From NCBI GenBank assembly GCA_963708045.1, contig OY970181.1:3740-67739 (forward strand): 64,000 bases of DNA, in the 5' to 3' direction. Below, one piece after another: positions 2 through 43,535 of the stretch (its first letter is position 1; each line of letters begins with the position of its first letter). The DNA comes from an uncultured bacterium. Its GTDB lineage: Bacteria; Patescibacteriota; Patescibacteriia; CAIQCM01. The position numbers and the translations under genes are program-made. A model generated the notes under the pieces. The model had not been told where the DNA came from, searched no databases, and worked only from the letters and a program-made list of their open reading frames with translations.

Positions 2-742
2 ATTAACCGCATTTGGGATCTCTTTGCGGTGAGAATTATCGCGAACAACGTCCCCGACTGTTACGCCGCTTTAGGCGTTATTCATTCGCTTTGGAAACCG
101 GTCAAAGGGCGGATTAAAGACTACATCGCTCAGCCAAAACCCAACGGTTATCGTTCAATTCATACAACCGTCTTTGCCGATGATGGAGAATTTGTTGAAT
201 TCCAAATTCGCACCAAAGAAATGCACGACGAGGCGCAATACGGAATCGCCGCCCACTGGCGCTATGACGAACTTAAAAATATCCAAGCGCCGCTTCCTAA
301 AAAACAAATCAACTGGGTGACCGAACTTGCCGCCATTCAAAAAGAAATGGAAGGCAACAAAGAATTTATGGCGACCATGGAACACCTAAAGATTGATGTT
401 TTCCACGACCGCATTTTTGTTTACACGCCACAAGGCGATGTGGTTGATTTGCCCGAAGAGGCAACGCCGATTGACTTTGCCTATGCCATTCATACCGACA
501 TTGGAAACACGGCAACGGCGGCGGCGATTAATGGAAAAAATGTCGCCTTAGATACACCACTCCAAAATGGCGATGTTGTAAAAATTGTTATTGATAAAAA
601 CCGCAAAGGCCCTTCCGCCGACTGGGCCAAATTTGTAAAAACCAGAATGGCTCGCGAACGAATTAAAGCCTACGCCCGTTCCCCGCTTCAAGACTTTATC
701 AAATCACTCGTGCCTAAGGGGAAGAAGAAAAAATTTAAATAA
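2..742 (+). CDS. relA: (p)ppGpp synthetase/hydrolase RelA/SpoT family, C-terminal part (5' end outside window)
   Basis: Translation contains the RelA_SpoT synthetase motif region (YRSIHTTV, HWRYDE) and a TGS-like segment (VYTPQGDVVDLPEEATPIDFAYAIHTDIG). The ORF is open to the window edge. Confidence 0.75.
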   Translation: MNRIWDLFAVRIIANNVPDCYAALGVIHSLWKPVKGRIKDYIAQPKPNGYRSIHTTVFADDGEFVEFQIRTKEMHDEAQYGIAAHWRYDELKNIQAPLPKKQINWVTELAAIQKEMEGNKEFMATMEHLKIDVFHDRIFVYTPQGDVVDLPEEATPIDFAYAIHTDIGNTATAAAINGKNVALDTPLQNGDVVKIVIDKNRKGPSADWAKFVKTRMARERIKAYARSPLQDFIKSLVPKGKKKKFK

Positions 743-842
743 CTTTTAACTGTTAACTGTTAACTTTTTTATTTAAAACATCCCTCAACTGCGGGATGTT
801 TTAAATAAAACCTAAAAGTTGAAAGTTAAAAGTTAAAAGTTT
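741..842. repeat. AACTTTTAACTGTTAAC-family short tandem repeats (inverted pair) flanking the relA/parB terminator
   Basis: T-rich arm at 741-767 and A-rich arm at 813-842. Other copies lie at 10325-10355, 13008-13040, 25201-25269, 40398-40427, 40527-40553 and 43453-43535. Confidence 0.8.
775..802. terminator. Bidirectional intrinsic terminator hairpin between convergent relA and parB
   Basis: AAAACATCCC-loop-GGGATGTTTT stem with an A-run on one side and a T-run on the other. It is flanked by AACTTTTAACTGTTAAC-type repeats. Confidence 0.6.
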
Positions 843-843
843 A

Positions 844-1740
844 CTAACCCCTAATCCCCAACTTAGCCACAAGCTCCCGATACTCTTCTTCGGAAAAATA
901 AGAAATTTTTATTGAACCATTTTTTCCAGCGCCGGAAATAGTAACCTTGGTGCCAAGCTTGCGTCGGAGCGCTTCGGCGTCGGCCGACGTTTGAGCATTC
1001 GGAAGCGCCGTGATTTCTTTGCGTTCGCGCGCCGCCTCTTCCGCCACGCGCACCGTAACTCCCCCGCCCAGCATCGTATTAAACATTTTTTTCTGTGCCG
1101 CAACGTCGGCAAGGCCGGCCAAAACTTTGGCTTGCGACGCGCTAATGATTCCAGAAATAATCGCCTGGCGAATTTCTTCGGGAAGCGAAAGCAAGCGCAT
1201 CATGTTAGCGATCGTTGAACGACTTTTACCTACGCGCCGACCAATATCTTCTTGGGTAAGATTAAATTCATGGGCCAGATCGGCGTACGCCGCGGCCTCT
1301 TCAAGCGCGTTTAGGTCGTGGCGATTAATGTTTTCAATGAGCGAAAGCAAAAGCTTTTCGCGGTCGTCTTTTGTTTCGCGAAGAATAACCGGAACCGTCG
1401 TCATTCCAAGCGCCTGCGACGCGCGCAAGCGGCGTTCGCCGGCAATAAGTTCATAGGTTCCGTCGGGTAGTTTATGCGCGACAAGCGGCTGAACAATTCC
1501 GTGTTCGCGAATAGAAGCAATGAGCGATTCCAATTCGGCATGATCAAAATTATGTCGCGGCTGGCGCGAATTAGGCTTGATTTTCCCAATCAAAATATTA
1601 TGAATCCGACCAAGCTCCGGCACGTCATTACTAACCGGCGCGGCAGAAATTTCTTTTTCTTTTGGAGAAAGCGCGGGAGGATGTTTTTGCGGAATGAGCG
1701 AAGAAAGTCCACGCCCCAGAGAAAAAGGTTTTGCTGGCAT
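844..1740 (-). CDS. parB: Chromosome partitioning protein ParB/Spo0J
   Basis: N-terminal LGRGLSSLI motif and ParB box (IVQPLVAHKLPDGTYELIAGERRLRAS). Followed by a C-terminal HTH and dimerisation region. Confidence 0.85.
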   Translation of the reverse strand: MPAKPFSLGRGLSSLIPQKHPPALSPKEKEISAAPVSNDVPELGRIHNILIGKIKPNSRQPRHNFDHAELESLIASIREHGIVQPLVAHKLPDGTYELIAGERRLRASQALGMTTVPVILRETKDDREKLLLSLIENINRHDLNALEEAAAYADLAHEFNLTQEDIGRRVGKSRSTIANMMRLLSLPEEIRQAIISGIISASQAKVLAGLADVAAQKKMFNTMLGGGVTVRVAEEAARERKEITALPNAQTSADAEALRRKLGTKVTISGAGKNGSIKISYFSEEEYRELVAKLGIRG

Positions 1741-1745
1741 ATTTT

Positions 1746-2516
1746 TTAAAGAGTGGTTAAGGCGTCTATTATTTCTCGCGTCAACCGGTCGTAAGCGGCG
1801 GCGGCTTTTGATCCCGGGTCGTATGACGAAATCGCTTGGCCAAAACTTGGCGCCTCGGCGAGCCGCACCGTTCGCGGAATCACTGAACGAAAAATTTTAT
1901 TAGGGAAATATTTATACAACTCTTCCAAAATTGATTGCGAGAGACGAACGCGGCTGTCAAACATCGTAATCGCCGCGCCGAGCACTTCTAATTTTGGATT
2001 AAGATTTTCTTTGACCAAAGCGATCGTTTCCAAAAGCTGGCCAAGACCTTCAAGCGCATAGTATTCGGCCTGAACCGGAATAAGGACGACGTCGGCGGCG
2101 GTAAACGCGTTTACCGTGATGAGCCCGAGAGACGGCGGACAGTCAAGAATAACAACGTCGTAGTCGTTTCGCACTTCCAAAAGCGCGTCAAAAAGACGGT
2201 GTTCGCGGCGATCAATTTCCACAAGTTCAACCTGCGCGCCGGCGAGTGCGCCGTGCGCTGGCGCAATTTTAAGTCCGGTATAAGCAGTTGGCTGGATAAC
2301 CGATCCCAAACTGGCGCGGCCGATAATCGCGTCGTAAATACTTGCTTCAAGTGACTTATGGTCAACGCCGAGTCCCGAAGTGGCGTTAGCTTGCGAGTCC
2401 AAATCGATTAAAAGCACGAATTTGCCAGCCGCGGCAAGCGAGGCAGCAACGTTAACAGCGGTCGTGGTCTTTCCCACTCCCCCTTTTTGATTAGCAACAG
2501 CAATGACAACGGCCAT
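1746..2516 (-). CDS. parA: Chromosome partitioning ATPase ParA/Soj
   Basis: Deviant Walker A KGGVGKTT at the N-terminus, ParA/MinD family length. Immediately upstream of parB. Confidence 0.85.
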   Translation of the reverse strand: MAVVIAVANQKGGVGKTTTAVNVAASLAAAGKFVLLIDLDSQANATSGLGVDHKSLEASIYDAIIGRASLGSVIQPTAYTGLKIAPAHGALAGAQVELVEIDRREHRLFDALLEVRNDYDVVILDCPPSLGLITVNAFTAADVVLIPVQAEYYALEGLGQLLETIALVKENLNPKLEVLGAAITMFDSRVRLSQSILEELYKYFPNKIFRSVIPRTVRLAEAPSFGQAISSYDPGSKAAAAYDRLTREIIDALTTL

Positions 2517-2547
2517 AGTTAATTTAGTTTATCAGCGAAAACCGCCT

Positions 2548-2576
2548 TTGACAAGGATAACAATTGCGAGTATATT
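2548..2576 (+). promoter_or_regulatory. Sigma-70-like promoter for the tRNA cluster (TTGACA-17-TATATT)
   Basis: Consensus -35 TTGACA (2548-2553), 17-nt spacer, -10 TATATT (2571-2576), lying upstream of tRNA-Leu. Confidence 0.5.
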
Positions 2577-2616
2577 ATCCTCTATGCCGATCGCGACCGG
2601 CATAGAGTTTTTTACG

Positions 2617-2699
2617 CCGCCGTGGCGGAATGGCATACGCGAAGGACTCAAAATCCTTTGATCGCAAGGTCGTGTGGGTTCAAGTCCCACCGGCGGCAA
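2617..2699 (+). tRNA. tRNA-Leu (anticodon CAA)
   Basis: GCCGCCG acceptor stem pairing with CGGCGGC. Anticodon loop CTCAAAA and a long variable arm typical of class II Leu tRNA. T-arm GGGTTCAAGTCCC. Confidence 0.75.
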
Positions 2700-2773
2700 T
2701 TTAGTAAATAGCACGTAGCAAATGGAGTGACCCATATGCCGCGAGCCACGAGCTACAAACCACGTGCAGTATA

Positions 2774-2844
2774 GCGGGGTGGAGAAGTGGCATCTCGCAA
2801 GGCCCATAACCTTGAGATCACCGGTTCAAATCCGGTCCCCGCAA
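2774..2844 (+). tRNA. tRNA with CAT anticodon (Met-type; elongator/initiator/Ile2 not resolved)
   Basis: Cloverleaf can be drawn with GCGGGG/CCCCGC acceptor, D-stem GAGA/TCTC, anticodon loop CCCATAA, and T-arm ACCGG-TTCAAAT-CCGGT. It is slightly short, so the boundaries are approximate. Confidence 0.5.
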
Positions 2845-2968
2845 GCTTGATAATGAATCAACATTCGTTATCAGACTTGCACAAGCTATAAAAAAATAAA
2901 CAACATACAATAAACGATCTGGTAAAAATTGTTCATTGTACGTTGTCCATTGTCCATAGATAAAAAAG

Positions 2969-3045
2969 GCCTGGGTAGCTCAGTCGGTTAGAGCGAAGGA
3001 CTCATAAGCCTTAGGTCGGCAGTTTAATTCTGCCCCCAGGCACCA
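2969..3045 (+). tRNA. tRNA with CAT anticodon (Met or lysidine-modified Ile2), CCA encoded
   Basis: GCCTGGG/CCCAGGC acceptor, U8, D-arm GCTC-AGTCGGTTA-GAGC, anticodon loop CTCATAA, T-arm GGCAG-TTTAATT-CTGCC. Discriminator A plus an encoded CCA. Confidence 0.75.
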
Positions 3046-3076
3046 AAAAATCTCCAAATATTTGGAGATTTTTTGT
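3046..3076. terminator. Intrinsic terminator after the tRNA cluster
   Basis: AAAAAATCTCCAAATA / TATTTGGAGATTTTTT perfect hairpin with flanking A and T runs. Confidence 0.7.
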
Positions 3077-3137
3077 TTGTCATCTTGTCTAATTTTCTCC
3101 TTGAATTTAACGCGTATTTTTGCTACATTTAAAAACT

Positions 3138-3617: not shown

Positions 3618-3618
3618 A

Positions 3619-5832: not shown

Positions 5833-5878
5833 ATCTAACGGCCCTTCAAATTTTTCCGTTTTAAAATTAATGGAAATA

Positions 5879-6478: not shown

Positions 6479-6525
6479 AAACGTAGGGGTCAGAGATTAG
6501 GGTTTAGGGTTTAGTGAAAAAATCA

Positions 6526-10318: not shown

Positions 10319-10381
10319 TTACTAAACTTTTAACTGTTAACTTTTAACTTTTTAGAAAACACCAATACCGAGGTCGAAATT

Positions 10382-12817: not shown

Positions 12818-13034
12818 CTTACACGACCCTTCTTCGGCGCCAAGCCGAAAAAATTGTTGTTGATTGGTGAACTGAAAGGAACACTTTTGCCTTTAAATAA
12901 TCAAAAACAAAAGCGCATTTTCCAGTTATTTTAACTGTAAAACATACCATAAATTATCATTTTTGTCAACATCAATACCTATTTGTAAAGGTTTCGCCTC
13001 AACAAAATAAAAGTTAAAAGTTAACAGTTAAAAG

Positions 13035-13829
13035 TTATAAATTAGGCAAGGGCGTTAAAATTTCCGCGCCATCGTCCGTTACGACAATCGTCATTTCCCA
13101 ATGCGCCGCAAGCGAATGGTCGGCGGTTTTAACCGTCCAGCCGTCGGGCATAAATTTTACACGCCAAGTGCCGGCGTTAATCATTGGTTCAATCGCAAGC
13201 ACCATCCCCTTTTTTAAAATCATATCTCGCGAATTTGCATCAACAAAATTTGGCACGGCTGGTTCTTCATGCACAGCATAACCAACGCCGTGGCCAGTCA
13301 AGTCACGGACAACGCCGTAACCATTTTTTTCGGCGTGCGTTTGAACAGCACGGCTAATGTCGGAAATTCTTGAACCGGACTTAACGGTGGAAACGCCGCG
13401 TTCCAAACATTCACGCGTCACCTTAATTAGTCGTTCGGCTGGCGGCGTTATTTTCCCAACCGCCACCGTCATTGCCATATCGGTAAAAAATCCGTCTACT
13501 GCCGGATACTGCATCCCAATGTCCAAACTAATAATATCGCCGTCTTTTAAAATTCTCCCAGGATGCGCCAACCCGTGCACCACCTCGTCGTTTATTGAAG
13601 TGCAAACGGTAGAGTTATAAGCCATTTTTACGCCGCTAATTTTATAACCCTTAAAGGCAGGCTTGCCGCCGGCTTTTAATATTTCTTTTTCCGCAAGGTC
13701 GTCTAGGTCGGAGGTAGAAACTCCGGGCGCGACCCGCGCCGCCACTTTACAAAGAACACGACTAAGCAACCGTCCGCCGCGAAGGATGGCTGCAATCTCT
13801 GCCTCGGTTTTAATGATGCCGGTCTTCAT
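13035..13829 (-). CDS. map: Methionine aminopeptidase type I
   Basis: Pita-bread fold with conserved metal ligands (ISLDIG, FTDMAMT, HGVG, VLAIEPM). Position after adk as in canonical spc/alpha operons. Confidence 0.9.
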   Translation of the reverse strand: MKTGIIKTEAEIAAILRGGRLLSRVLCKVAARVAPGVSTSDLDDLAEKEILKAGGKPAFKGYKISGVKMAYNSTVCTSINDEVVHGLAHPGRILKDGDIISLDIGMQYPAVDGFFTDMAMTVAVGKITPPAERLIKVTRECLERGVSTVKSGSRISDISRAVQTHAEKNGYGVVRDLTGHGVGYAVHEEPAVPNFVDANSRDMILKKGMVLAIEPMINAGTWRVKFMPDGWTVKTADHSLAAHWEMTIVVTDDGAEILTPLPNL

Positions 13830-24915: not shown

Positions 24916-25271
24916 CTTGTTTATGACTTTATCAATTATTTGAGAAGCCTTTAACGCAAAAGGCCAGAGGAAACCCGGCACGTCGCACGTTGCTCGTCGC
25001 ATGTGGATATTTCCACGTGCGACGCACGACGCGCTATTTGCCAATTTTCCTCAGGCCTCACTCGTCTTTGTGGAGTAGGGCGATTATTATGATTAATTCA
25101 ATTAACACCTCTTTGGTTTGCTTCCACTCGCGAAGGTTTTCCCCAATATCTTCCTTTGGCTTGGGACCTTTCTTCGTTGTTTCGGCGTACCCTTTTATTG
25201 AACTTTTAACTTTTAGGTTTTAACTTTTAGTCTTTTCTAAAAGTTAACAGTTAAGAGTTAAAAGTTTTATA

Positions 25272-25616
25272 CTACATTTTAATCTCAACGTCAACCCCGG
25301 CTGGAAGTGACAAACTCATGAGTGAATCAATCGTTTTTGGAGTCGGCTCAACGATATCCACAAGCCGTTTGTGCGTGCGCATTTCAAACTGGTCGCGGCT
25401 ATCTTTGTGAACAAAAGAAGAACGGTTAACCGTGTACTTTTTCTTTTCTGTCGGAAGCGGGATTGGACCAATTACCTTGGCGCCAGAACGTTCAGCGGTT
25501 TCAATAATCATCCGTGTGGATTGATCAATGATCTTATGGTCATACGCGCGAATCTTAATGCGGATTCGCGATTTGCTTTCCTCTTCTTTGGTGGTGATTT
25601 TCTTTTCTTCAGCCAT
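25272..25616 (-). CDS. rpsJ: 30S ribosomal protein S10
   Basis: [16 protein letters not shown]... S10 core with a short acidic N-terminal extension. Confidence 0.9.
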
Positions 25617-25671
25617 GTAAGTTTCAGAATCCCCACCCCGATTGTAGTCGGGGTGGGGGTCAGTATCAAAT

Positions 25672-26868
25672 TTATTTAATAATCTTCACAACAACGCCGG
25701 CGCCGACTGTTTTGCCGCCCTCGCGGATAGCAAAGCGCTGTTTCTCTTCCAAAGCAACCGGGTTGATGAGTTTGATTTTTAGGTTAACCGTATCGCCAGG
25801 CATAACCATTTCCACGCCAGCCGGCAATTCAACTTCGCCAGTAACATCGGTAGTGCGGAGATAAAATTGCGGTTTATAGCCTTTGAAGAAAGGCTTATGG
25901 CGGCCACCTTCTTCTTTGGTAAGGGCATAGACTTCGGCATCAAATTCGGTATGTGGCGTAACCGATCCCGGCTTTGCCAAAACCATACCGCGTTCAACTT
26001 CTTCCTTTTTCAAACCACGAAGAAGCAAACCAGCGTTGTCGCCAGCCTGTCCGCGATCCAATTGCTTGTTAAACATTTCAATACCGGTTACAACCGTCTT
26101 TTTGGTTTCATGCAAACCAACGATTTCAACTTCGTCGTTCAAATTGATAACACCGCGCTCAATACGACCAGTCGCGACAGTTCCACGTCCTTCAATAGAG
26201 AAGACGTCTTCAACTGGCATAAGAAACGGCTTGTCCATATCGCGAACCGGTTCTGGAATGTATTCATCCAAAGTCTTGATAAGATCAAGAATCGGCTTGG
26301 AAGCGGCTTCATCTTTCGGATTTTCCAAAGCCTTGAGCGCTGAACCACGAATGATTGGGGTGGTGTCGCCCGGATAGTGATATTTCTTAAGCAAATCGCG
26401 AATTTCTTCTTCAACAAGGTCAATAAGTTCCTTGTCTTCAACCATGTCAACTTTGTTCAAAAAGACGACAATGTGAGGAACGCCGACTTGGTAAGCCAAA
26501 AGAATGTGTTCGCGGGTCTGAGGCATTGGGCCATCAGCGGCGGAAACAACAAGGATCGCGCCGTCCATTTGCGCGGCGCCGGTGATCATGTTTTTGACAT
26601 AATCGGCGTGGCCAGGACAATCAACGTGCGCGTAGTGGCGCTTGTCGGATTCGTATTCAACGTGAGCGGTGGCAATAGTAATACCGCGAGCCTTTTCTTC
26701 AGGAGCGGCGTCAATTTGGTCAACGCTCTTATCCTGCGCCGTCATACCATGCGCTTTGAGCACTTGGAGAATTGCGGCGGTAAGAGTGGTTTTTCCATGG
26801 TCAACGTGACCAATGGTGCCGACGTTAACGTGCGGCTTAGATCGTTCAAATTTTTTAGCGTCTGCCAT
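25672..26868 (-). CDS. tuf: Elongation factor Tu
   Basis: [27 protein letters not shown]-domain motifs. 398 aa. Confidence 0.95.
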
Positions 26869-27002
26869 ATGATTTTAAGAAAAAAAAATTGGCTTGGTTA
26901 CGAATGAATTAAGCAATAATGAGTATAACAGAGGATAAAATTTCGCGCAAGTCCCCCTCCACTTGAACCATACACCATGAACCATGTACCAAGAACTACG
27001 CA

Positions 27003-27449: not shown

Positions 27450-27639
27450 ATTATTTATTTACCTTAGTAAAAGTTATGCAGGGCGTCAACAGCCATTACT
27501 GAACAACCAATTAACCTGCCGTCATTCCGAGCCCGTAAGGTCGTTTTGGTCAGGGCGAGGAATCACGGAGCCAGCCTTGAGACGTTGAGTTCCCTCGTTA
27601 CCACTCGGGATGACGCCGAGATGGATTAGAAATTAGGTA

Positions 27640-28731
27640 TTAGATATTTTTATAAGCAGTTCCCACCGCCTCCGAAATATTCTTGTAACCATTTTTATCT
27701 AGAAGCGCAACCAATCCGCGATTGATTTCGCCGATAAGTTGTGGGCCTTCAAAAATCATTCCCGTGATTAATTCTACAAGCGTCGCGCCGAGTTGAATTT
27801 TTCGGAACGCATCCTCGGCGCTAAAAACACCGCCACACCCAATGATAATATATTTGCCCTGCGCCTTCTTATATATATACGCAATCTGATCGTCAGAAAG
27901 TTTCTGCACCATCTTCCCAGAAAGCCCGCCCTTCAAGCGGATATCGTTCTCTTCTTTTTTCTCTTTAGTGAGATTAGTGCAAATAAAACCATGAACGCGG
28001 TGACGCGACGAAACTTCAAGAAGTGGATCTAATTTTTGCGGGGTAAGATCGGGTGATAACTTAAGAAAGACGGGCTTTTTTGTCGGAATTGCGTCAAGCT
28101 GCGTCAATAATAAATCTAACCGCACGGGATCGGTAAATGGTTCGCCGCCGTAAGCATTAGGGCAACTGATGTTCACCGTAAAATAATCACCGATGTCTTT
28201 AAACGCGTTAAACGCTTTCGCATAATCCGCGATGCCCGTTTCCGTATCCGCACATGCGACATTGTTAGTCTTGGCAATATTAATACCAACGGGGATTTTA
28301 AATTTTTTATTCGCTAGACGGACGGAGATTTTTTCGCAACCGTCATTTTTTAATCCGTAGTGCACGACTAAAGCTTTTAATTGCGGCAAACGCCAGAGTC
28401 GCGGCTTAGAATTTCCCTCACACGGTTCGCCGGTAATTGATCCGACTTCGGTGAAACCAAAACCAACCTCCAGCATTATGTCCGTCATTTTGGCATCTTT
28501 ATCAAACCCAGCCGAAAGTCCAATTGGATTTACGAATTTTATTCCCGCGACCATTTGTTCCAAGCGCGGATTTTTATAAGAAAAAAGCCTACGCGTTATT
28601 GCGCGCGTGAATTTATATTTTCCCAAAAACACGCCGACTGCCGTAAACCAATCATGAACTTGCTCAGCATCAAAAAGAAAAAGAATGGGTTTAAGCGCTT
28701 TTCTATATACCGCCCCGATGATTTTCGCCAT
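27640..28731 (-). CDS. pyrD: Dihydroorotate dehydrogenase (quinone-dependent class 2-like)
   Basis: TIM-barrel DHOD motifs (GLSAGFDKD, FTEVGSIT, NISCPN, GCGGV). Start set at MAKIIG so the gene does not overlap the fusA terminator; the ORF track start is 28878. Confidence 0.75.
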   Translation of the reverse strand: MAKIIGAVYRKALKPILFLFDAEQVHDWFTAVGVFLGKYKFTRAITRRLFSYKNPRLEQMVAGIKFVNPIGLSAGFDKDAKMTDIMLEVGFGFTEVGSITGEPCEGNSKPRLWRLPQLKALVVHYGLKNDGCEKISVRLANKKFKIPVGINIAKTNNVACADTETGIADYAKAFNAFKDIGDYFTVNISCPNAYGGEPFTDPVRLDLLLTQLDAIPTKKPVFLKLSPDLTPQKLDPLLEVSSRHRVHGFICTNLTKEKKEENDIRLKGGLSGKMVQKLSDDQIAYIYKKAQGKYIIIGCGGVFSAEDAFRKIQLGATLVELITGMIFEGPQLIGEINRGLVALLDKNGYKNISEAVGTAYKNI

Positions 28732-30886: not shown

Positions 30887-30979
30887 AAAAAAAATAGGGT
30901 TTAGGGTAGAGGGTTTAGGGTTTAGACGTTTTGCTAACCCCTATACCCTCTACCCTAACCCTGGATATTTATATTTTAT

Positions 30980-32001: not shown

Positions 32002-34515
32002 TTATTTAACAATTATCACGCCAGACCCTTTTTCAAGTTTTTTAAAAAGCAAATACTTCTCTCCAACTTTGATCCTGACAAATTTATTGTTAATAATCTC
32101 GCTTTTAGGAATATTAATTACACCGCCATATTTTTCCTTCAGGGCGTTGCCTTGTGCGAGCATCTCCCGCTCTTCCTTTCTCACAGCACTATCAAGCGCG
32201 TTAAAATCTATTTCAAACTTTCGGCCACGAAGACCAAAGTGGTCAATGATATTGCGCTGACCTTTGAGTTTGGCTTCAGTCTTCTTAAATTTTAGACCGG
32301 CATAATCTTTAACATCGATCTTATCAAGGACACTCTCCGGTGAATTGTTAAAATCGGCGACTTTTTCCAGTGTTATTACGCGCGATCGATATTCGTCGCC
32401 CTCAGCAACCTCGCCGGAATATTCATCAACGATCTTGAAACCCAACCCCTCGGCGAATTCATGAAATTTTGAAACATCACGTAGATCGAGACTATAGATA
32501 AAACTTATCACCGCTCGACCTCCCGGCTTTAAAACGCGATTGGCTTCTTTAAGCACTTCAAGACGTTCAAGCTTGCCTCTGCTTGGAACAAAGCTTGAGT
32601 AATGCAACGCCAAGGCCAGATTAAGATAATCAAACGACTTGTCCGCGAAAGGCAGCTCGCGCCAGCTGGCAACCGCGCTCTGTACTACCTGCTCCTCTTT
32701 CGCCCTTAAATGATACTTATTCGCGTCAACGCTAATTACCCGTTTCTGCAAAGCATCGCCGATATGCTGACGCAACATTTCGGGGCCGGAAGCTACGTCA
32801 AGAATACGCGTTTCTTCGGGCTTACCGCCGCGCTCTTTTAACATTGAGCCGACTAGCGTACCAGCGACACGATTAGCGTTGGCCTGATAACTGCGATTTC
32901 CAAGATCAAGATAGCAGTCGGCATAGTCCTTGCCGTACTCTGACAAAAATTCTCTGAAGCCCTCTTCTCCAATCTCTTTCACGTGCGCAAAGATCCGCAT
33001 CAGTTTATCCCACGACGAGAAATAATACTCTGCTAACTCCCTGCCAACCTCTAAATCGGGATTAGCACTTTGTTCGTCTTCTCTTAAGAGTTGCTTTTCC
33101 AGTTCTTGAATAGGAATGCCGTGAAGTAATTTTTCAATTGCCTGGTATTTCCGTCCGATATACTCGTGGATCCCCTCTTCAAGGGTATTTTTAGTAACAA
33201 AGGTGCGAACGGCGAGGTCGTGCTTCAAGCCCGGTCGGTATACTCGCGACACTTGTTGACGACGATCATATTCCGTCCATGGCTCGTTGTATGTAAAGAC
33301 AGTTTCGGCGGAAGTAAAATCAACACCAACATCGGCTGTCTGGCCGCTCACGACCAAAAGCATCTTACCGGTCGTTTCCCTGAATTTTTTTTGAATTTCT
33401 TCACGTTCGCCGCGATTGCCGCCATGAACAACCATAACCTCGACATCTTGAGGCAGACCGAATTTTGTGATGATATTATCTTTCCCACGAATAACGCCTT
33501 CAATATAACCGTTCACGAATAAAACAGCTTTGTTGTTTTTTGCAAAGCATTCGCGTAAATCATTACCAACTCTTTCAATTTTCGCACTGCGAATTCCCGG
33601 CGTGGCGTCTAATAAGTCCGGGTTCATTAGGAACTGCCGCAACATGGACATTTTCTGTGCCGCCTCTAATTCATCGTCTTCAAGGAGAACTTCATATATA
33701 TCCGTTTCCATTGGTGACAACTCGGTTTCAACTTTCTCCTCACTTAACGCAGGCATCTCCACCCCCTCTTCCAATTTCTTCGCCTGCATACGCGGCAATA
33801 ACAATGACCGCAGATCAACAAGGTCGCCTTGGATTATTTGCCGAACCAGGTCACGATCGTCCCAAGTCGCGAATTTTTCTGGATAAAGTAATTTCAAAGA
33901 GATAGCGATATCTTCGACTTTATTTGGCGCTGGCGTACCGGAGAGCAAGGCTAAATACTTACCTTCGCCTTCAACTTTTTTAGACAGTTCAATCAACTCG
34001 TTTGTCCTTTGTCCTTCCAAATTTTTCAATTTATGAACCTCATCAACAACCAGCATGTCGTATTCCAATGATGCTAGCGCTTGGCTATACCGTTCATTCA
34101 TGCGCTCTTGAGACATAAGCACATAATCGTATTGATCAGCAGTTACTCCGACTAAATCCTCAACCGAAGATACCTCCAAAACTCTCGGTGCTTCGCCGCT
34201 CTTAAAATACCCGCCGTCTTCGCCGCGATCGGACAAATACCGCCTCCAGGTAGAAACAACGTTGCTTGGCGCAACAACCAAAGCACAACCGATGCCAAGC
34301 TGTTCTTTAGCCATGATAACGGAAGCACTTTTTCCAAGACCCATTTCATCGGCGATCAAAAGCCGCCTTTTTTCCGCCAACTCCTTCATATTGATGCGCT
34401 GATTGATATCGGGAAATTCCCTGTTCGGATCAAGCGAATTGAACGAACCGCTCGGGTTTACGGAAATCTTTAAGGACGGAATCGTAATAGCGAATAACGT
34501 CTTGAATAACATCAT
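32002..34515 (-). CDS. SNF2-family helicase fused to a C-terminal class I SAM-dependent methyltransferase domain
   Basis: Helicase motifs I (ADEMGLGKSA), II (DEVHKLKN) and III-VI regions, then a Methyltransf_11-like domain (ILDVASGPEML, VLKPGGRAVISF). 837 aa. ATGA overlap with the upstream repeat-protein gene. Confidence 0.75.
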   Translation of the reverse strand: MMLFKTLFAITIPSLKISVNPSGSFNSLDPNREFPDINQRINMKELAEKRRLLIADEMGLGKSASVIMAKEQLGIGCALVVAPSNVVSTWRRYLSDRGEDGGYFKSGEAPRVLEVSSVEDLVGVTADQYDYVLMSQERMNERYSQALASLEYDMLVVDEVHKLKNLEGQRTNELIELSKKVEGEGKYLALLSGTPAPNKVEDIAISLKLLYPEKFATWDDRDLVRQIIQGDLVDLRSLLLPRMQAKKLEEGVEMPALSEEKVETELSPMETDIYEVLLEDDELEAAQKMSMLRQFLMNPDLLDATPGIRSAKIERVGNDLRECFAKNNKAVLFVNGYIEGVIRGKDNIITKFGLPQDVEVMVVHGGNRGEREEIQKKFRETTGKMLLVVSGQTADVGVDFTSAETVFTYNEPWTEYDRRQQVSRVYRPGLKHDLAVRTFVTKNTLEEGIHEYIGRKYQAIEKLLHGIPIQELEKQLLREDEQSANPDLEVGRELAEYYFSSWDKLMRIFAHVKEIGEEGFREFLSEYGKDYADCYLDLGNRSYQANANRVAGTLVGSMLKERGGKPEETRILDVASGPEMLRQHIGDALQKRVISVDANKYHLRAKEEQVVQSAVASWRELPFADKSFDYLNLALALHYSSFVPSRGKLERLEVLKEANRVLKPGGRAVISFIYSLDLRDVSKFHEFAEGLGFKIVDEYSGEVAEGDEYRSRVITLEKVADFNNSPESVLDKIDVKDYAGLKFKKTEAKLKGQRNIIDHFGLRGRKFEIDFNALDSAVRKEEREMLAQGNALKEKYGGVINIPKSEIINNKFVRIKVGEKYLLFKKLEKGSGVIIVK

Positions 34516-36392
34516 CCAGGTCTTTGTTGTTTAGGTGATGAAATTTTTCGAACGATCTCATCCAGATAATCATAAATTATATCTTGACTCGTCCTATTTG
34601 GATCTTTGCGCCGTTGTTCAAAATAATAGCTCAAACAATGCTCCTTGAGCGCTTCAAACAATCCTTCGCGCAAAGACAGGTCGGAAAGATATTCAACAGC
34701 AACTCCGATATTATCTAAGGTAAATTTTTGCGACTTGACCAAAAAATCGCCGAGGTAATCTGCCAAAATTCCTTTGACATATTCCGGCGGTAAGCCTTTG
34801 TATTCGGGACGGAATTTATAGAGAATATCTAAGGCGTGTGAGCCGCCCAGTACACCGACGAGAACTTGAAATTTTTTTGAATCCACCGATTCACCAACCG
34901 AAAGATCAGAAACAAAAGATTCAATAGAAATACTCGCATTTTTCTTTTCACTTTTTTTATAACATTCATCTTTAATCAACTCTATCAATTCTGGACTCAA
35001 AAACTCTGTGACAAAGCCGTTCCTGCGAAATTTCTTATACCATTCCTGATGTGCGGACCGATACCTGTCAGCAATTTTTTTGATTGCATCCCTCTTGGCA
35101 AAACCGATTCTACTCAACTCGAAAATATTCATCCAATCGTCTGGTGCTACCTCAAACCGTCCGAGATCCGAACGAATCGCCTCAATCAAATCGGGATGAA
35201 AATATTCAACCTTTCCACCAGCGGCTGGCCAATACTTCCTGAACCATTCCGGATGGGCCGCGCGATATTTTTCAGCTGCTTTCCATATGGATCCACGCGA
35301 CCCAATACCGGTTTTGCTTAAAGCAAATACATGCATCCACCCCTCCGGCGGCCTCTCCTTCCCCTCCAATTCATCACTGATAATTTTAACTAAATCTGGG
35401 TGAAAATATTCCAATTCAGGACTGCCAGGTGCCCAATATTTCTTGAGCCATTCCGGATTAGACACACGATACCTTTCTGCTATTGGCGTAATCACATTCT
35501 GCCCGCCGACACCAGTCTTTACGACGTCAAAAACCGTTTTCCACCCTGTGGGCGGTTTTTTCCTGCTTCGTAGTATCGCAATAATTATAGCGACTAATTC
35601 AGGGTGAAAATGTTCAATTTTTAATCCTGTTACGGTCTTGTATTCCTTGAACCATTCCGGATGACTTGTCCTATATGGCCCAACGATCCTATTTATTATT
35701 TTGTCGCCCCCTGTTTCTAAAACACTAATTTGACTCCTATTCATCCAGCCATCGGGTGCAAATTCGAATTTATTTAACTCTTGCCTAATGATTTCGACCA
35801 GATTCGGGTGCAAATATTCGCCGCTCGGGCCCTTTATAGGCCAAAACTCCTTGAACCATTCCGGATGCTCTGCACGATGCTGTTCGGCGTGTTTATTAAT
35901 CGTATCCCTGGATCCAATGCCAGTTTTACTTAAAGCAAATGCATTCATCCATCCCTCCGGTGCCCTTTCCCGTCCCTCTAACTCAGAACGAATTATCGCT
36001 ATCAGATCGGGGTGTAGATATTCGGTAGCAGAACCGGTTTCGGGATAAAAAAATTTAAACCATTCAGGGTGATCGTCCCGATATCTCGCCGCGATACTGT
36101 CAATCGTATCCCTGGATCCAATGCCAGTTTTACTTAAAGCAAATGCATTCATCCATCCCTCCGGTGCCCTTTCCCGTCCCTCTAACTCAGAACGAATTAT
36201 CGCTATCAGATCGGGGTGTAGATATTCCAAAAACCTACCTTCCTCGGTCCGAAAAAGCTTTAACCATTCTGGATGCTCTTTTTTGTATTTTTCAGCTATG
36301 TGCCTAATAACATAATCCTCTACTTTCAAGAGGCTCACCAGATCAATAAGTTTAACCCAGTCTTTGGGAACCTTGTTTGTTTCGAAAATCAT
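34512..36392 (-). CDS. Tandem-repeat protein (about seven 63-aa repeats with HPEWF...EYLHPDLIAIIRSELEGRERAPEGWMN consensus)
   Basis: Protein-level periodicity and a 189-bp DNA periodicity including two identical copies. Probably the downstream part of a longer gene interrupted by a frameshift near 36352-36392. Confidence 0.6.
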   Translation of the reverse strand: MIFETNKVPKDWVKLIDLVSLLKVEDYVIRHIAEKYKKEHPEWLKLFRTEEGRFLEYLHPDLIAIIRSELEGRERAPEGWMNAFALSKTGIGSRDTIDSIAARYRDDHPEWFKFFYPETGSATEYLHPDLIAIIRSELEGRERAPEGWMNAFALSKTGIGSRDTINKHAEQHRAEHPEWFKEFWPIKGPSGEYLHPNLVEIIRQELNKFEFAPDGWMNRSQISVLETGGDKIINRIVGPYRTSHPEWFKEYKTVTGLKIEHFHPELVAIIIAILRSRKKPPTGWKTVFDVVKTGVGGQNVITPIAERYRVSNPEWLKKYWAPGSPELEYFHPDLVKIISDELEGKERPPEGWMHVFALSKTGIGSRGSIWKAAEKYRAAHPEWFRKYWPAAGGKVEYFHPDLIEAIRSDLGRFEVAPDDWMNIFELSRIGFAKRDAIKKIADRYRSAHQEWYKKFRRNGFVTEFLSPELIELIKDECYKKSEKKNASISIESFVSDLSVGESVDSKKFQVLVGVLGGSHALDILYKFRPEYKGLPPEYVKGILADYLGDFLVKSQKFTLDNIGVAVEYLSDLSLREGLFEALKEHCLSYYFEQRRKDPNRTSQDIIYDYLDEIVRKISSPKQQRPG

Positions 36393-36480
36393 TTTTAATC
36401 AATAAAACCAGTTCAGGACTATACTCAATTCTAATCCCCCGCCCTGTTTCAATTTTACGGAACCATTCCGGATGTCCAGC
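34990..36480. repeat. 189-bp-period coding tandem repeat array; two adjacent copies share an identical ~120-bp block
   Basis: The block TCCCTGGATCCAATGCCAGTTTTACTTAAAGCAAATGCATTCATCC...GGGGTGTAGATATTC occurs at ~35909 and ~36098, offset by 189 bp. Older copies are diverged. Confidence 0.8.
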
Positions 36481-36711: not shown

Positions 36712-36869
36712 AAAAAATATCTCATTCTTTAAGGTATATTTTTATCACGAAACCCAAAAAAACACTAGCGATTACATAAAATTTTTCCTTGCGAAGATTT
36801 GCCGGACCAGATAATCGTCAATATTTTTGTTTCTAAACCGAGCCTGGTTTTTGCCAAACAAAATTAAAT

Positions 36870-37500
36870 GAAAACCGCCAGCTAAACGCTGGCGGTTTCG
36901 TGCTTACCGGCTTAACGCCGGATTTTACTGAAGAGGCTTGGTTGCTCAAGTGTTATTTGGTGATGACTTTGATTCTGAACATATTTTTTAACCGCCTCCT
37001 CATTCACCCCAACGGTGGATACGAAGTAGCCTCTGGCCCAAAGAACACCTTTGGGAAACTTTTTGGTTTTCTTTTTTATCCAACCTGATGTTTTCGCTTT
37101 CAGAATTTGGATGACATACGCGATGGAGTATTTGGGCGGGATGCCGATGTGGAGATGGATGTGCTCATCACCAATGTGCCAAGCATAGATCTTCAAGCCT
37201 TTCCATTGGGCTATTTGGTTGAACATTCGCTTCAGCTCTTGTTTAATGAAGTTGTCCGCCAATACCTTGCCACGGTACTTTGGAGCCCAGACTATATGAT
37301 AGCTGCAGTGATATGTGCAGTGATCTAATTGGCATAGTTGATGGTTTCTGGACATAAAATCACCTCCTTTCTCGGGAGGTTATTTTATCTTATGGACAAG
37401 AGCTACGCTTTTAAACGCACTCGCCAGCTAAACGCTGGCGGTTTATCGTTTATAATGAAAAACCCCACGACTCTCTCCGCAGAGAGTCGTGGGGTTGTTG
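36870..37500 (-). mobile_element. IS200/IS605-family insertion sequence (tnpA only)
   Basis: Y1 HUH transposase ORF flanked by the same hairpin CGCCAGCTAAACGCTGGCGGTTT at ~36876-36898 and ~37422-37444. A strong hairpin (CCCCACGACTCTCTCCGCAGAGAGTCGTGGGG) at 37458-37497 forms the distal end. Confidence 0.7.
36912..37355 (-). CDS. tnpA: IS200/IS605 family transposase TnpA (Y1 HUH)
   Basis: YHIVWAPKYR, HUH motif HIHLHIGIP, and catalytic Tyr region RGYFVSTVG. Confidence 0.8.
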   Translation of the reverse strand: MSRNHQLCQLDHCTYHCSYHIVWAPKYRGKVLADNFIKQELKRMFNQIAQWKGLKIYAWHIGDEHIHLHIGIPPKYSIAYVIQILKAKTSGWIKKKTKKFPKGVLWARGYFVSTVGVNEEAVKKYVQNQSHHQITLEQPSLFSKIRR

Positions 37501-37509
37501 CGATCTTGG

Positions 37510-39628: not shown

Positions 39629-39751
39629 TGTTTCCCCCTCCGCCCAAATGGACGGTTAAGACGTTTAAATTACTGCAAATTGTAAACGAACTATCGCAAA
39701 AATATACTTGTGAAAAGTATTTTTGTCAATAAGCGCTCTCACGCGGTTTGT

Positions 39752-40387: not shown

Positions 40388-40471
40388 TTGTTTATTGAAC
40401 TTTTAGCTGTTAACTTTTAACTTTTAATTGACTGATTAAAACCCAATCTTTAGATTACCATAGGCGGACAC

Positions 40472-40500
40472 TTGCACAAAGTTACAAAATATGATATATT
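40472..40500 (+). promoter_or_regulatory. Candidate promoter for rpmB (TTGCAC-17-TATATT), between inverted AACTTTTAAC repeat arms
   Basis: -35 TTGCAC at 40472-40477 and -10 TATATT at 40495-40500. Confidence 0.4.
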
Positions 40501-40562
40501 TGGCTCTACTTAAAACAGTCGTCAAACCTAAAAGTTAAAAGTTAAAAGTTAACACCTAATCT

Positions 40563-40775
40563 ATGTCCAGAAAATGCTCAAATTGCGATCGCCGCTATCT
40601 CGCGAGCGTGAGCCGCAGCCACTCCAACATTGCCACCAAGCGCCGCCAAAATGTTAATCTTCAAGCGCGCCGCGTGGATGGCAAATCAGTCTTGGTCTGT
40701 GCCGCTTGTATCAAAGCCGGAAAAAAGATCAAGAAAGTAAAAGTTGCCAAGGTCGCAAAAGTTTCAAAAAAATAA
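40563..40775 (+). CDS. rpmB: 50S ribosomal protein L28 with KVAK-repeat C-terminal tail
   Basis: MSRKCSNCDRRYLASVSRSHSNIATKRRQNVNLQ matches the L28 N-terminal consensus. Confidence 0.85.
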   Translation: MSRKCSNCDRRYLASVSRSHSNIATKRRQNVNLQARRVDGKSVLVCAACIKAGKKIKKVKVAKVAKVSKK

Positions 40776-40782
40776 ACGTTTA

Positions 40783-40819
40783 AAAAATACCGCCCTTTCA
40801 TCGGGGTGGTATTTTTTTA
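40783..40819 (+). terminator. Intrinsic terminator after rpmB
   Basis: AAAAAATACCGCCC-TTTCATC-GGGGTGGTATTTTTTT. Confidence 0.65.
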
Positions 40820-40833
40820 ATTGTAGAATAATT

Positions 40834-41085
40834 TTAATTCAGACCAGCAATGCCCAAATCTTTTCGTGCTTCCGCCACCGCTTGAAAAGCCTCCTCTTCG
40901 GAAGTAAACGAAATTTCGCCATATACCGTTGCCGCGCTTTCGCCTTTGGTATTTTTGGTTCCCGCGATAGGAAGGCAGGCAACAAACACGCCGTCAATCT
41001 GTTTTATCTCGTAAGGTTCAAGACCGTGGACTGACACAGGTTCTTTTTCTAATTGTTCGCTATACGCAATTTGTTCGCCGCGCAT
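40834..41085 (-). CDS. Small hypothetical protein (83 aa)
   Basis: Clean ORF with non-repetitive composition. No motif recognised. Confidence 0.3.
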   Translation of the reverse strand: MRGEQIAYSEQLEKEPVSVHGLEPYEIKQIDGVFVACLPIAGTKNTKGESAATVYGEISFTSEEEAFQAVAEARKDLGIAGLN

Positions 41086-41136
41086 ATAAATAAATTTTAA
41101 AAATTATTTATTATTAACGATATAATCAATTTTTTA

Positions 41137-41208
41137 TCGGGGCGACAGGAATTGAACCTGCTGTTTCTTGCACCCCATGCAAGCGTGATACCGGTTCACC
41201 ACGCCCCG
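41137..41208 (-). tRNA. tRNA-Pro (anticodon GGG)
   Basis: Minus-strand cloverleaf with CGGGGCG/CGCCCCG acceptor, D-stem GTGA/TCAC, anticodon loop ATGGGGT, T-arm GCAGG-TTCAATT-CCTGT. Confidence 0.75.
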
Positions 41209-41265
41209 ATAAAAAATTGGTTTTTGGTCTGTTAATTTTGTAACTCCAGATTATCCATAAAAATG

Positions 41266-41303
41266 AAAAGAGGCAAGGGTGCGAAACCACCCTTGCCTCT
41301 TTG
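41266..41303. terminator. Strong hairpin terminator (after minus-strand ORF 41318..41878, before tRNA-Pro)
   Basis: AGAGGCAAGGGTG-CGAAAC-CACCCTTGCCTCT, followed by a T-run on the minus strand. Confidence 0.65.
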
Positions 41304-41317
41304 AAAACGGCAGCCGC

Positions 41318-41878
41318 TCACACTGATGCGACAGACTCGCGAACCGGTTCGGAGGAAACAACGCGCTGAAACAGTGCGGGCAAGCCGGTTATGTTGGGCC
41401 GATCACTAGCACAGGCCTCGCTCAATCTATAAGCGACGTAGCCACCCGTAAGATTGACGAATCCCGGCATAGCCAGATACTCGGCAACGCCCGTGATCAA
41501 AATGATTCTCTGAAAACCGAGAACAGCCTCATCAACCGATAGATATGTCGGCGACCTCTCATTTAGATCTGAGAAATTGCGCGGACGAACAACGCTCTGA
41601 TCACGTGAAACGATCAAAATCCGATCGTCACGTCCACACCCCTCCCGATCACCCAAACTCGCCAAATCAGTTAGTTCACCTCCAAGGACAAAAACCGGAG
41701 ACTGGTTCGGCGCTTCGGTTTCAATGCGAGCAATTTTGCAGGTTGCTTCATTATGGCGCCACCGATACTCTTGCCCCGCTTTCTTGGCAAAAACCTCCGC
41801 CATCCGGTGAACGATACTGACTGCCCAGACATCAGACTCGAGACACGCGATCATTAGTTTTTTTGCAGCGTTTTTCAC
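41318..41878 (-). CDS. Hypothetical protein (186 aa), GC-richer than neighbours
   Basis: ORF with a 4-nt overlap with the upstream ORF. No confident domain assignment. Confidence 0.4.
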   Translation of the reverse strand: MKNAAKKLMIACLESDVWAVSIVHRMAEVFAKKAGQEYRWRHNEATCKIARIETEAPNQSPVFVLGGELTDLASLGDREGCGRDDRILIVSRDQSVVRPRNFSDLNERSPTYLSVDEAVLGFQRIILITGVAEYLAMPGFVNLTGGYVAYRLSEACASDRPNITGLPALFQRVVSSEPVRESVASV

Positions 41879-42513
41879 AACGAACCTCCTTGTTGTTCAA
41901 GTGGAGCAGGAATAACTTTTTCAAACGGTTTTCTTGGTTGCGGCCAATTCTTTGCCTTTGCCAAACCACCCAAAAGCGCGATCGCGATTTGTGTGTGGTA
42001 AAGCGAACGGTTTTCAGGACGATCAATATATCCTCGCGATATGTCGTTCACGAGAAAAATATAAGGAAAGTCGTTCAGCCGAAACCCATTACTTTGCGGT
42101 GGAATAAAGAAGTGGGTTAATTCCCCCCTCGCACCTCTCACGTCCGCAACTTCCAACCACTGCCTATGACCGGACGCCAGCGTCAAGTAGAGTACTTCGT
42201 CTCTTGTTAAATCAATATCAAGCGAGCTAAGCGCTGCTCGTTTTTTAACTCCAGTTGCGACTTCAATCAAACGCCCATTCCACACTTCTTTTGAACTACT
42301 AGAATCAATCACCGAAAAACCAGAAACTCTGCCGCCAGCACACCCGTCGCTCGCAATAAACGGCGACCATCTGATTCTTCTAATCCGATGTCTTTCGTGT
42401 CTAGTGTCATCTTCTAGCGCGGCGATTGTCTCGGCGATCAAACGGTCGCCCCAGTGATAAACTAATGCCTTAACCATGTTGCACCCCCAAAACTTTGAAT
42501 TGTTCACGAACAA
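41875..42513 (-). CDS. Hypothetical protein (212 aa), GC-richer than neighbours
   Basis: ORF forming a two-gene unit with 41318..41878. Confidence 0.4.
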   Translation of the reverse strand: MFVNNSKFWGCNMVKALVYHWGDRLIAETIAALEDDTRHERHRIRRIRWSPFIASDGCAGGRVSGFSVIDSSSSKEVWNGRLIEVATGVKKRAALSSLDIDLTRDEVLYLTLASGHRQWLEVADVRGARGELTHFFIPPQSNGFRLNDFPYIFLVNDISRGYIDRPENRSLYHTQIAIALLGGLAKAKNWPQPRKPFEKVIPAPLEQQGGSL

Positions 42514-42736
42514 AAAATCCTCGGCGATCCGAGGAGTTTTGGCACGAAAATTAATTCACGCTAAAACTCCTACGGCCCGAAGATGGTAAAGCAATATTGC
42601 CAAACAAAGTTGGCGCCGGTCGTTCCGTTAGTTTTAATGTGGCAAGTAAGCATATTTTATATATACGCCCTAAATGCTTTTTTGTAAAGACAGTAGGCGG
42701 CGCCCCCCACATCCCATGCTTCTTTATACTTAATAC

Positions 42737-42838
42737 CCCCTCCCATCTTTACGCGACCGCGTAAAGATGGGAGGGGTAAAATATTTTTAAAATAAACTAC
42801 CCCTAAGCAGAGCTCACGGGGTAGTTTATTTAATACTA
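42737..42838. terminator. Two consecutive long perfect hairpins downstream of ndk
   Basis: A 19-bp stem CCCCTCCCATCTTTACGCG/CGCGTAAAGATGGGAGGGG at 42737-42776. A 14-bp stem AAATAAACTACCCC/GGGGTAGTTTATTT at 42797-42838, with the first followed by T-runs on the minus strand. Confidence 0.6.
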
Positions 42839-42853
42839 CAACCTACAAACTGG

Positions 42854-43447
42854 TTATTGTTTCGGCAAAAACCACGTTGGGTCGTACTGCACGCGATCGT
42901 TAACGTGTTCGTACTCATAAAGCTCAACGTCGGAAAACCAGATCGGAATTTCGTATTCAGCTTCTTTGGCATTACCCGAAGCGTGAATCAAATTGCGAAT
43001 CGGACGATTCTGAGTATTAGAAAGCGCATAGCTATCATGCGAAAAGTCGCCGCGGATCGTCCCTGGAGCCGAACCAGCTGGTTCGGTCGCGCCGACAAGT
43101 TTCCTAATGAGCGAAACCGCCGCTTCCCCTTCCCAAACCATCGCGACGATCGGCGCCGACTTTAAAAAATTAACCAATTGGTCTTTAATTGACTTGCCGT
43201 ATGACAAGTGATCAGCAAAAGGAAATTTTTCGCCAAGCGAATCATATTTGGTCTTGGCTTTGGTATAGACACCCATCATCCACTCTTCGGTAAGAGCATA
43301 ATGCTTGTCCACGTCTTCGTGTGATGCGTGAACCATTTTAATCGCCGTGAGCTTAAGACCAACGCGCTCAAAGCGGCCGATGATTTCGCCGATGAGTCCG
43401 CGCTGAACACCATCCGGTTTAATTAAGACGAGAGATTTTTCCATCAT
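42854..43447 (-). CDS. ndk: Nucleoside diphosphate kinase (long form with insertions)
   Basis: LVLIKPDGVQRGLIGEIIGRFE and the active-site His region NLIHASGN. Confidence 0.75.
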   Translation of the reverse strand: MMEKSLVLIKPDGVQRGLIGEIIGRFERVGLKLTAIKMVHASHEDVDKHYALTEEWMMGVYTKAKTKYDSLGEKFPFADHLSYGKSIKDQLVNFLKSAPIVAMVWEGEAAVSLIRKLVGATEPAGSAPGTIRGDFSHDSYALSNTQNRPIRNLIHASGNAKEAEYEIPIWFSDVELYEYEHVNDRVQYDPTWFLPKQ

Positions 43448-43535
43448 ATTCGTTTAACTTTTAACTGTTAACTGTTAACTTTTAGGATCCTTGTCAAACT
43501 AAAAGTTAAAAGTTAAAACTTAAAAGTTAATTAAA

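Follow-up and report, generated by a model that had tools for sequence, protein, structure and literature searches.

The 64-kb stretch of contig OY970181.1 analysed here (64,000 nucleotides, hereafter the window) carries short tandem arrays of 7-nt units that populate its intergenic spacers as at least seven families of heptamer. These are heptanucleotide simple-sequence repeats resembling STRR (short tandemly repeated repetitive) sequences; they form hairpins and behave like miniature inverted-repeat transposable elements (MITEs) or like REPINs, the hairpin-forming doublets of repetitive extragenic palindromic (REP) sequences. Bacteria have been known to carry heptanucleotide repeats since about 1990, STRR being the name of those in filamentous cyanobacteria, and small dispersed repeats of Nostoc were reportedly described by Elhai in 2008. 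The present case is an instance of this phenomenon from the candidate phyla radiation (CPR) in which hairpin-forming inverted pairs dominate. Taken as a whole, the observations are probably best explained by STRR-type heptamers that are copied as non-autonomous hairpin elements and exert a stem-loop effect at gene boundaries.

One of the families, here called family A, had been noticed in a sequence-only reading of the window, which described a single dispersed motif with a unit of 8-9 nt at eight or more loci. The motif is real: with up to two mismatches, AACTTTTAACTGTTAAC matches 17 times in the window against 0.02 expected from shuffles, and the two-unit pattern AACTKTTAACTKTT, with up to one mismatch, matches 27 times against 0.27 expected, every match falling within six loci. 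Tandem Repeats Finder (TRF) gave the unit as AACT[T/G]TT, present in 3.4-4.6 copies with a period of 7 nt rather than 8-9, and the count is six loci with ten arrays. Four inverted pairs (741-768/814-841, 25201-25228/25239-25266, 40398-40425/40530-40550 and 43456-43483/43501-43528) join T-rich and A-rich orientations as that reading had described, and two arrays are single (10325-10352 and 13009-13036). A targeted comparison of arrays within the window found 740-768 to be identical to 43455-43483 (29 nt), and 10325-10352 is identical to the reverse complement of 13009-13036; the four cores enclosed by the pairs are all different. All ten arrays are T-rich after a stop codon or A-rich before a start codon, a pattern for which no orientation rule is claimed, since in the four pairs it follows from strand symmetry and it is absent in other phyla.

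Family A is accompanied by other heptamers of the same layout, which had been missed. The further period-7 families found by TRF are TTAGGGT, TTAGGTG, ATTAGAT, TGAACCA/CATGTAC, ATTGTCC, GCACGTC and GGCAAAT. A period scan (at least 3 copies, at least 85% self-match) returned 24 arrays at period 7, none in shuffles, none at periods 8-15 and five at period 6. TRF assigned a period of 7 to all arrays, with 3.4-5 head-to-tail copies, 71-100% matches and minor unit variants. Arrays were mapped within the window, where they occupy 17 loci at a density of about one array per 3 kb. The window is about 90% coding and 18 of the 20 merged arrays lie outside open reading frames (ORFs), an outcome with a chance of about 1e-16 by our own binomial estimate; the remaining two are in variable parts of truB. 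Inverted pairs make up 10 of the 15 intergenic loci. The mapped features are as follows, with coordinates in the window and strand.

741-768, + strand: family A array, (AACT[T/G]TT)x4, beginning with the relA/spoT stop codon TAA at 740-742.
769-813, no strand assigned: core enclosed by pair 1; relA and parB converge on this hairpin (AAAACATCCC..GGGATGTTTT), which is terminator-like in both directions.
735-850: whole stretch of pair 1, folding at -42.6 kcal/mol (z -10).
814-841, - strand: family A array, inverted partner of 741-768, just past the parB stop codon.
2905-2957, + strand: weak ATTGT[TC]C / ACAAT.A inverted pair between two tRNA-Met genes (-13.7 kcal/mol, z -2.8).
6497-6514, + strand: single (TTAGGGT) array in a 47-nt spacer; no hairpin on folding.
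10325-10352, + strand: single family A array, (AAAAGTT)n on the sense (-) strand, ending 6 nt before the recO ATG.
13009-13036, - strand: single family A array whose first unit is the stop codon of the methionine aminopeptidase gene.
24978-25032, - strand: GCACGT[CT] inverted pair within the 356-nt S10->L3 spacer (-40.3 kcal/mol, z -5.1).
25201-25266, - strand: family A inverted pair directly past the S10 stop codon (-21 to -29 kcal/mol, z -6 to -6.7).
26964-26996, + strand: single TGAACCA array just past a stop codon, upstream of tuf.
27625-27648, + strand: single ATTAGAT array that includes the stop codon of the dihydroorotate dehydrogenase gene.
30895-30962, - strand: TTAGGGT / ACCCTAA inverted pair between S7 and fusA, followed on the sense strand by U8 and then AUG (-44 kcal/mol, z -6.9).
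40398-40425, + strand: family A array, (AAAAGTT)n on the sense (-) strand, ending 10 nt before the M50 peptidase ATG.
40428-40528, no strand assigned: divergent promoter core separating the M50 peptidase gene from rpmB, kept in relatives whose flanking arrays differ.
40530-40550, - strand: family A array, (AAAAGTT)n on the + strand, upstream of the rpmB (L28) ATG at 40563.
43456-43528, - strand: family A inverted pair filling the 88-nt spacer that leads from the ComEC metallo-beta-lactamase (MBL) gene to ndk (-25 kcal/mol, z -5.2).
50596-50666, - strand: CATGTAC/TGAACCA inverted pair whose first unit is the upstream TGA stop codon (-42 kcal/mol, z -6.3).
55098-55173, - strand: TTAGGT[GA] inverted pair filling the trx->trxB spacer and beginning within the last three trx codons.
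55504-55580, - strand: ATTAGA[TC] inverted pair filling the infB->trx spacer.
63615-63638, + strand: (GGCAAAT)x3, 21 nt, in frame inside truB.
63819-63847, + strand: run of four ACGTGC[CT]-like units inside truB.

The six long paired spacers fold at -21 to -45 kcal/mol with z from -5.2 to -10, which upholds the earlier description of intergenic, dispersed and mostly inverted pairs that fold into long hairpins. The paired loci give imperfect hairpins of 25-35 bp, whose stems are broken at intervals of about 7 nt by unit variants that the other arm does not mirror. No hairpin was predicted for the single arrays, four of whose five loci were folded. Nearly all genes of the window are on the - strand, and on the sense strand the beginning of an array typically coincides with, or lies at, the stop codon of the preceding gene: TAA-CTTTTAAC follows both relA and the aminopeptidase gene, TGA-ACCATG follows the gene for a phosphoenolpyruvate (PEP)-utilising enzyme, and ATC-TAA-TAC is found in the dihydroorotate dehydrogenase gene. 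At the other end, 3' arms stop 3-13 nt before the next ATG (ndk, fusA, trxB, trx, recO, M50 peptidase and rpmB). Most heptamer units, as read from the sequence, include TAA, TAG or TGA, and because 7 equals 1 modulo 3, three copies of such a unit place stop codons in all three frames. Annotators of genomes of this kind will find many stop codons and 5' leaders within repeat arrays. The gene names given earlier (RelA/SpoT, RecO, IMPase, S10/L3, L28 and ComEC/NDK) were correct, while the array said to follow recO in fact lies 6 nt upstream of its start codon, and several loci (S10->L3, MBL->ndk) are intra-operonic and not at the operon boundaries described.

The gene content of the window is CPR-like: it includes type IV pilins and a ComEC in split form, and the genes are small and share one strand. 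The closest homologues of its NDK are 75-92% identical and metagenomic, those with names being Candidatus Uhrbacteria or Patescibacteria. On these grounds the host is an Uhrbacteria-like CPR bacterium; the cyanobacterial origin that STRR-like repeats suggested was ruled out by the same gene content and NDK homologues. Relatives were available as syntenic contigs, labelled L120, L121, L123, L126, L127, L130, L131, L135, L137 and L138, and at the junctions that hold arrays in the window they have either an empty spacer of 2-36 nt or a hairpin made of a different heptamer. The MBL->ndk spacer is 36 nt long and array-free in L120/L121 (NDK 87% identical). Arrays at this junction are AACTTTT/AAAAGTT in the window, ATGAACN/TCGTTCA in L126/L127 and L135, ATGAACC/GTGGTAC in L137, ATGGACC/GTGGTAC in L138, ATGAAAC/ATGCTTC in L131 and a single ATTAGAT array in L130, so that the window, L126, L130, L131, L135, L137 and L138 together use at least five different heptamers. 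The hairpin prediction at this junction was significant in L126, L135, L137 and L138; no hairpin was predicted there in L120, L123 or L130.

Further along the operons the same alternation is seen. The infB->trx spacer measures 7 nt in L123, 91 nt in the window and more than 100 nt in L135, and the trx->trxB spacer 2, 65 and more than 100 nt, respectively. Where filled, these spacers are almost wholly hairpin, with a different heptamer family in each case, and the proteins encoded upstream terminate at the same residue. In the divergent L28/M50 spacer, the promoter core is conserved and the flanking arrays vary by lineage: the window and L123 have AACTTTT, L126 has ATGAGTT/AACTCAT and L120 has TTAGGGA. 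The earlier suggestion of promoter-like sequence between paired arrays is borne out here by the sites within 40428-40528. Both period-7 runs in truB fall in parts of TruB that vary in comparison with L123; they were considered as candidate insertions and rejected, as they are not insertions relative to L123. In two of the relatives we also observed a bAvd / 23S-rRNA-intervening-sequence-protein gene (L126:1402-1713 and L127:1887-2255), which begins right after a heptamer array (L126 1330-1361).

Copies of whole blocks were found as well. L135 carries an element of about 95 nt, built around the unique core GATTCCATCGGATAAATGCGAAGCTTTAATTG, at three different junctions, and L126 carries it at two; the five copies are near-identical, internal sequence included, lie in both orientations and differ by one 7-nt unit. 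The 34 nt at 55501-55534 of the window, which precede trx, recur unchanged at L130 2352-2385, which precedes ndk, and the two sites are not orthologous. These comparisons demonstrate that arrays have been gained, lost and replaced and that blocks have been copied between non-orthologous spacers; growth in place alone does not account for them. The earlier suggestion of MITE-like behaviour is upheld by these relatives, whose empty and filled sites and whole-element copies elsewhere are as expected of a MITE- or REPIN-like element.

It is against this background that a purely local origin has to be judged, in which simple-sequence repeats arise in each spacer by replication slippage and become paired through local palindromic duplication, with neither mobility nor function. 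Copy numbers do vary in 7-nt steps, as they do among the element copies of L135 and L126, and the presence of the same AACTKTT array in many unrelated phyla and viruses (see below) fits a convergent origin. At the ndk site, two imperfect heptamers in L120 (ATTATCC ATTCGCC) stand in place of four ATTAGAN units in L130. Mrazek (2007), as reported in PMC4679880 and PMC4692102, found heptamers to be an over-represented class among long simple repeats of bacteria and proposed a 7-nt slippage unit of DNA polymerase, which would favour such an origin. However, slippage does not account for a ~95-nt element whose unique, non-repetitive core recurs at three different junctions, for a 34-nt array that has the same order of unit variants and three of the same flanking bases at non-orthologous sites of two genomes, or for the dominant family that every genome has in common among many of its spacers. 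We therefore regard slippage without copying as unlikely, though it keeps some credibility.

The sequence-only reading had proposed a terminator or insulator element family, and the relA/parB core does have the makings of one: it is a classic bidirectional terminator (ACATCCC..GGGATGT followed by a T run at 769-813, in keeping with the terminator-like sequence described earlier for some cores) whose stem is lengthened by the arrays. The S7->fusA hairpin is likewise followed by U8. These two are the only places at which a GC-rich stem with a U run was found in a test for intrinsic terminators, the other arrays having no U run. Most stems are AT-rich and interrupted, lack a U run and have an ATG within 3-13 nt; other hairpins separate genes whose spacers in L123 measure 2-7 nt (infB-trx-trxB) or lie inside strings of ribosomal protein genes, and at the five single-array loci (four of them folded) no hairpin was predicted. 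The repeats are thus for the most part not intrinsic terminators, and we consider it very unlikely that termination or insulation at operon ends is their general role.

The most precise form of the earlier REP/MITE-like proposal is that the arrays are REP or REPIN elements mobilised by a REP-associated tyrosine transposase (RAYT). A RAYT-like Y1 transposase gene is present in the window (53213-53890, - strand; Pfam Y1_Tnp 1.4e-8), and the inverted doublets (10 pairs whose arms are mutually inverted arrays, in the manner of terminal inverted repeats) make hairpins as REPINs do (PMC3116915). The gene scores 45 bits for NCBIfam REP_Tyr_transpos, below the cut-off of 80. A different palindrome, GAGGCGAAACCTCG, lies on its flanks and also interrupts it, and the flanks hold no heptamer arrays. 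Copies of this palindrome lie at 53228, 53988 and 54094 (reverse complement), and an in-frame copy at 53713 interrupts the RAYT-like ORF; together they look like a small, separate REP-like family. A degenerate copy at 12987 (12987-13000) adjoins a family A array. The second Y1 gene of the window belongs to an IS200-like insertion sequence (~36870-37445; tnpA at 36912-37355, - strand, Pfam Y1_Tnp 1.6e-33) that has its own CCGCCAGC..GCTGGCGG hairpins and the hairpin AAACCGCCAGCGTTTAGCTGGCGG on both sides. Both the RAYT-like and the IS200-like transposase were rejected as mobilisers, their hairpins being unrelated to the arrays. Inspection of all arrays found no GTAG or CGTC tag, the units being of TTAAC-, TGAAC- or TTAGG-type, and at least seven arm families would require several cognate enzymes. 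The heptamer arrays are not RAYT-type REPs, and mobilisation by the RAYT-like Y1 gene is highly improbable.

A further possibility arises from translation. A Shine-Dalgarno (SD)-like motif of at least 4 nt was found in just 5 of the 34 genes checked, the sole canonical SD, AAGGAGGTG, belonging to the IS200-like transposase gene. Arrays stop 3-13 nt before start codons, at the position that an SD would occupy in a genome from which SD sites are almost absent, and they might accordingly be recognised by a protein that binds single-stranded RNA or DNA and thereby sets the translation of the downstream gene. MacGregor made the same proposal for the TAACTGA repeats of Beggiatoaceae, with S1, Csp or CsrA-like proteins as candidates (PMC4679880). 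Many unrelated heptamers share the position, however, and both orientations are found; family A has no orientation preference relative to genes in other phyla, and no candidate protein was identified here. Such a role seems scarcely likely.

Copied heptamer hairpins with a gene-boundary effect remain the explanation that we favour. The hairpins would be non-autonomous, strand-symmetric elements that spread or are copied between spacers and subsequently lengthen and shorten by slippage. Three circumstances may explain why stop/start junctions tolerate them: a stop codon is present in most units, so that three copies cover all frames; the hairpin would keep stop and start physically adjacent; and the genome hardly uses SD sites. 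Array-free spacers nearly all have a unique GC-rich hairpin (e.g., 25614-25675, 45616-45683, 48086-48206 and 57572-57689), and these unique hairpins may fill the same niche. In Rfam, the only RNA families matched were tRNAs. From the position of the arrays and the unique hairpins of the other spacers, we infer an RNA stem-loop role at gene boundaries. Its likeliest effect would be that of a generic stem-loop, protecting or processing mRNA 3' ends, with pausing or termination at sites that have a U run behind them, and with initiation at the downstream gene coupled to termination at the upstream one.

Several observations weigh against this explanation. The ndk-junction hairpin is absent in three relatives and is therefore dispensable there. 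The four hairpins folded on both strands were about equally stable on either strand, so that selection on the sense RNA by way of G-U pairs is not evident, and unit variants of the family A arms are not mirrored between partners. In the divergent M50/L28 spacer the arms fall in different transcripts, making an RNA hairpin unlikely. The copies seen comprise whole elements in the relatives, and arrays, but no complete family A element, the four cores of this family in the window being different. A check for target-site duplications found TAAA on both sides at three of four junctions, in AT-rich palindromic sequence. Finally, no mobilising enzyme for the arrays was identified in the window, nor was an autonomous element with the same ends: the IS200-like hairpins differ and no other transposase was found.

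Beyond the CPR, (AACTKTT)x4 occurs at 119 or more loci in contigs representing one genome per species. Among the matches listed, most are from Cyanobacteria (Microcoleus, Kamptonema, Okeania, Calothrix, Fischerella and others), Bacteroidota and Ignavibacteria, and a few from Poribacteria, Calditrichia, Acidobacteriota and Proteobacteria. The motif is thus not lineage-specific as had been supposed. We also observed it on 25 IMG/VR viral contigs (L208-L232), including metagenome-assembled genomes of giant viruses and phage-size contigs of more than 100 kb. The listed loci of other phyla hold 335 heptamer arrays of many families, with a median length of 39 nt and a maximum of 227 nt, in comparison with the short arrays of 3-5 units here. 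An inverted partner lies within 150 nt of 8% of these arrays, against at least 51% in CPR loci; examples outside the CPR are L069 (Fischerella) and L023. Family A arrays at the listed loci are outside long ORFs in 134 of 135 cases, with no orientation preference relative to genes. A separate observation concerns L200, a metagenome contig of 42% GC whose NDK is 40% identical to the query, in which 1096-1332 holds about 34 tandem TAACTGA/TTACTGA copies, the Beggiatoaceae and cyanobacterial heptamer of PMC4679880.

A bolder possibility, which we offer tentatively, is that the heptamer-armed hairpins are very small mobile elements in a class of their own, strand-symmetric and not dependent on the Y1 transposases of the window, that colonise the stop/start junctions of CPR operons and bring their own stops in all frames. 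If this is true, the heptamer (STRR-type) repeats of Cyanobacteria and Bacteroidota might also owe their existence to such copying, and compact CPR genomes with and without arrays would offer a tractable route to whatever machinery underlies the 7-nt period. A bacterium of the CPR that combines a small set of genes with tight operons and dense arrays, and whose relatives are array-free or use other heptamers, makes a compact comparative system for asking what generates heptamer repeats and what they do to operon expression. A literature search found no paper connecting heptamer repeats with Patescibacteria.

Two other features of the window were noted in passing. A 204-nt tandem repeat (35898-36269; 1.8 copies, 88% identical) lies inside a 626-aa ORF (34512-36392) that has no Pfam match, and 32002-34515 encodes an 837-aa fusion of an SNF2-type helicase and an S-adenosylmethionine (SAM)-dependent methyltransferase.

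Among known systems, REPIN/REP-RAYT elements (PMC3116915, PMC3733652) are also short, extragenic, dispersed and strain-variable inverted doublets that form hairpins. The arms here, however, are tandem heptamers instead of a 20-40-nt REP with a GTAG or CGTC tag (PMC3733652), and the arrays are unassociated with the RAYT-like gene of the window. Likeness to MITEs lies in inverted arms around a core, presence or absence at orthologous sites and near-identical copies at several sites in relatives; unlike MITEs, they have no parent insertion sequence with matching ends that we could find and no clear target-site duplication, and copies of the same family within the window share arms, not cores.

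Other heptamer repeats are comparable too. The GGGAATC repeats of Xanthomonas and the GGGGAYT repeats of Nostoc are 89-93% intergenic and nearest the upstream ORF, are sometimes inverted, and differ in length and sequence at the same junction between close relatives (PMC4692102), features that the arrays here share; they are G-rich and quadruplex-forming, a potential that only the TTAGGGT family has in the window. The TAACTGA repeats of marine Beggiatoaceae, Cyanobacteria and Bacteroidetes, which adjoin start codons without an SD (PMC4679880), are one base away from TAACTGT/TAACTTT, and they too are intergenic, near starts, found in SD-poor genomes and patchy across phyla. Those repeats are nearly all direct, with a preferred forward orientation upstream of starts, whereas most of ours are inverted pairs.

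The nearest match is with the STRR sequences, which share the 7-nt tandem unit, the several families per genome and the strongly intergenic location; AACTKTT x4 itself is found in many cyanobacteria, and inverted pairs occur there too (L069, L023). What distinguishes the present case is its host, a CPR bacterium with a very compact genome, and the form of the repeats: the arrays are short (3-5 units), at least half of them have an inverted partner compared with 8% elsewhere, and the pairs usually span the entire spacer from stop to start.

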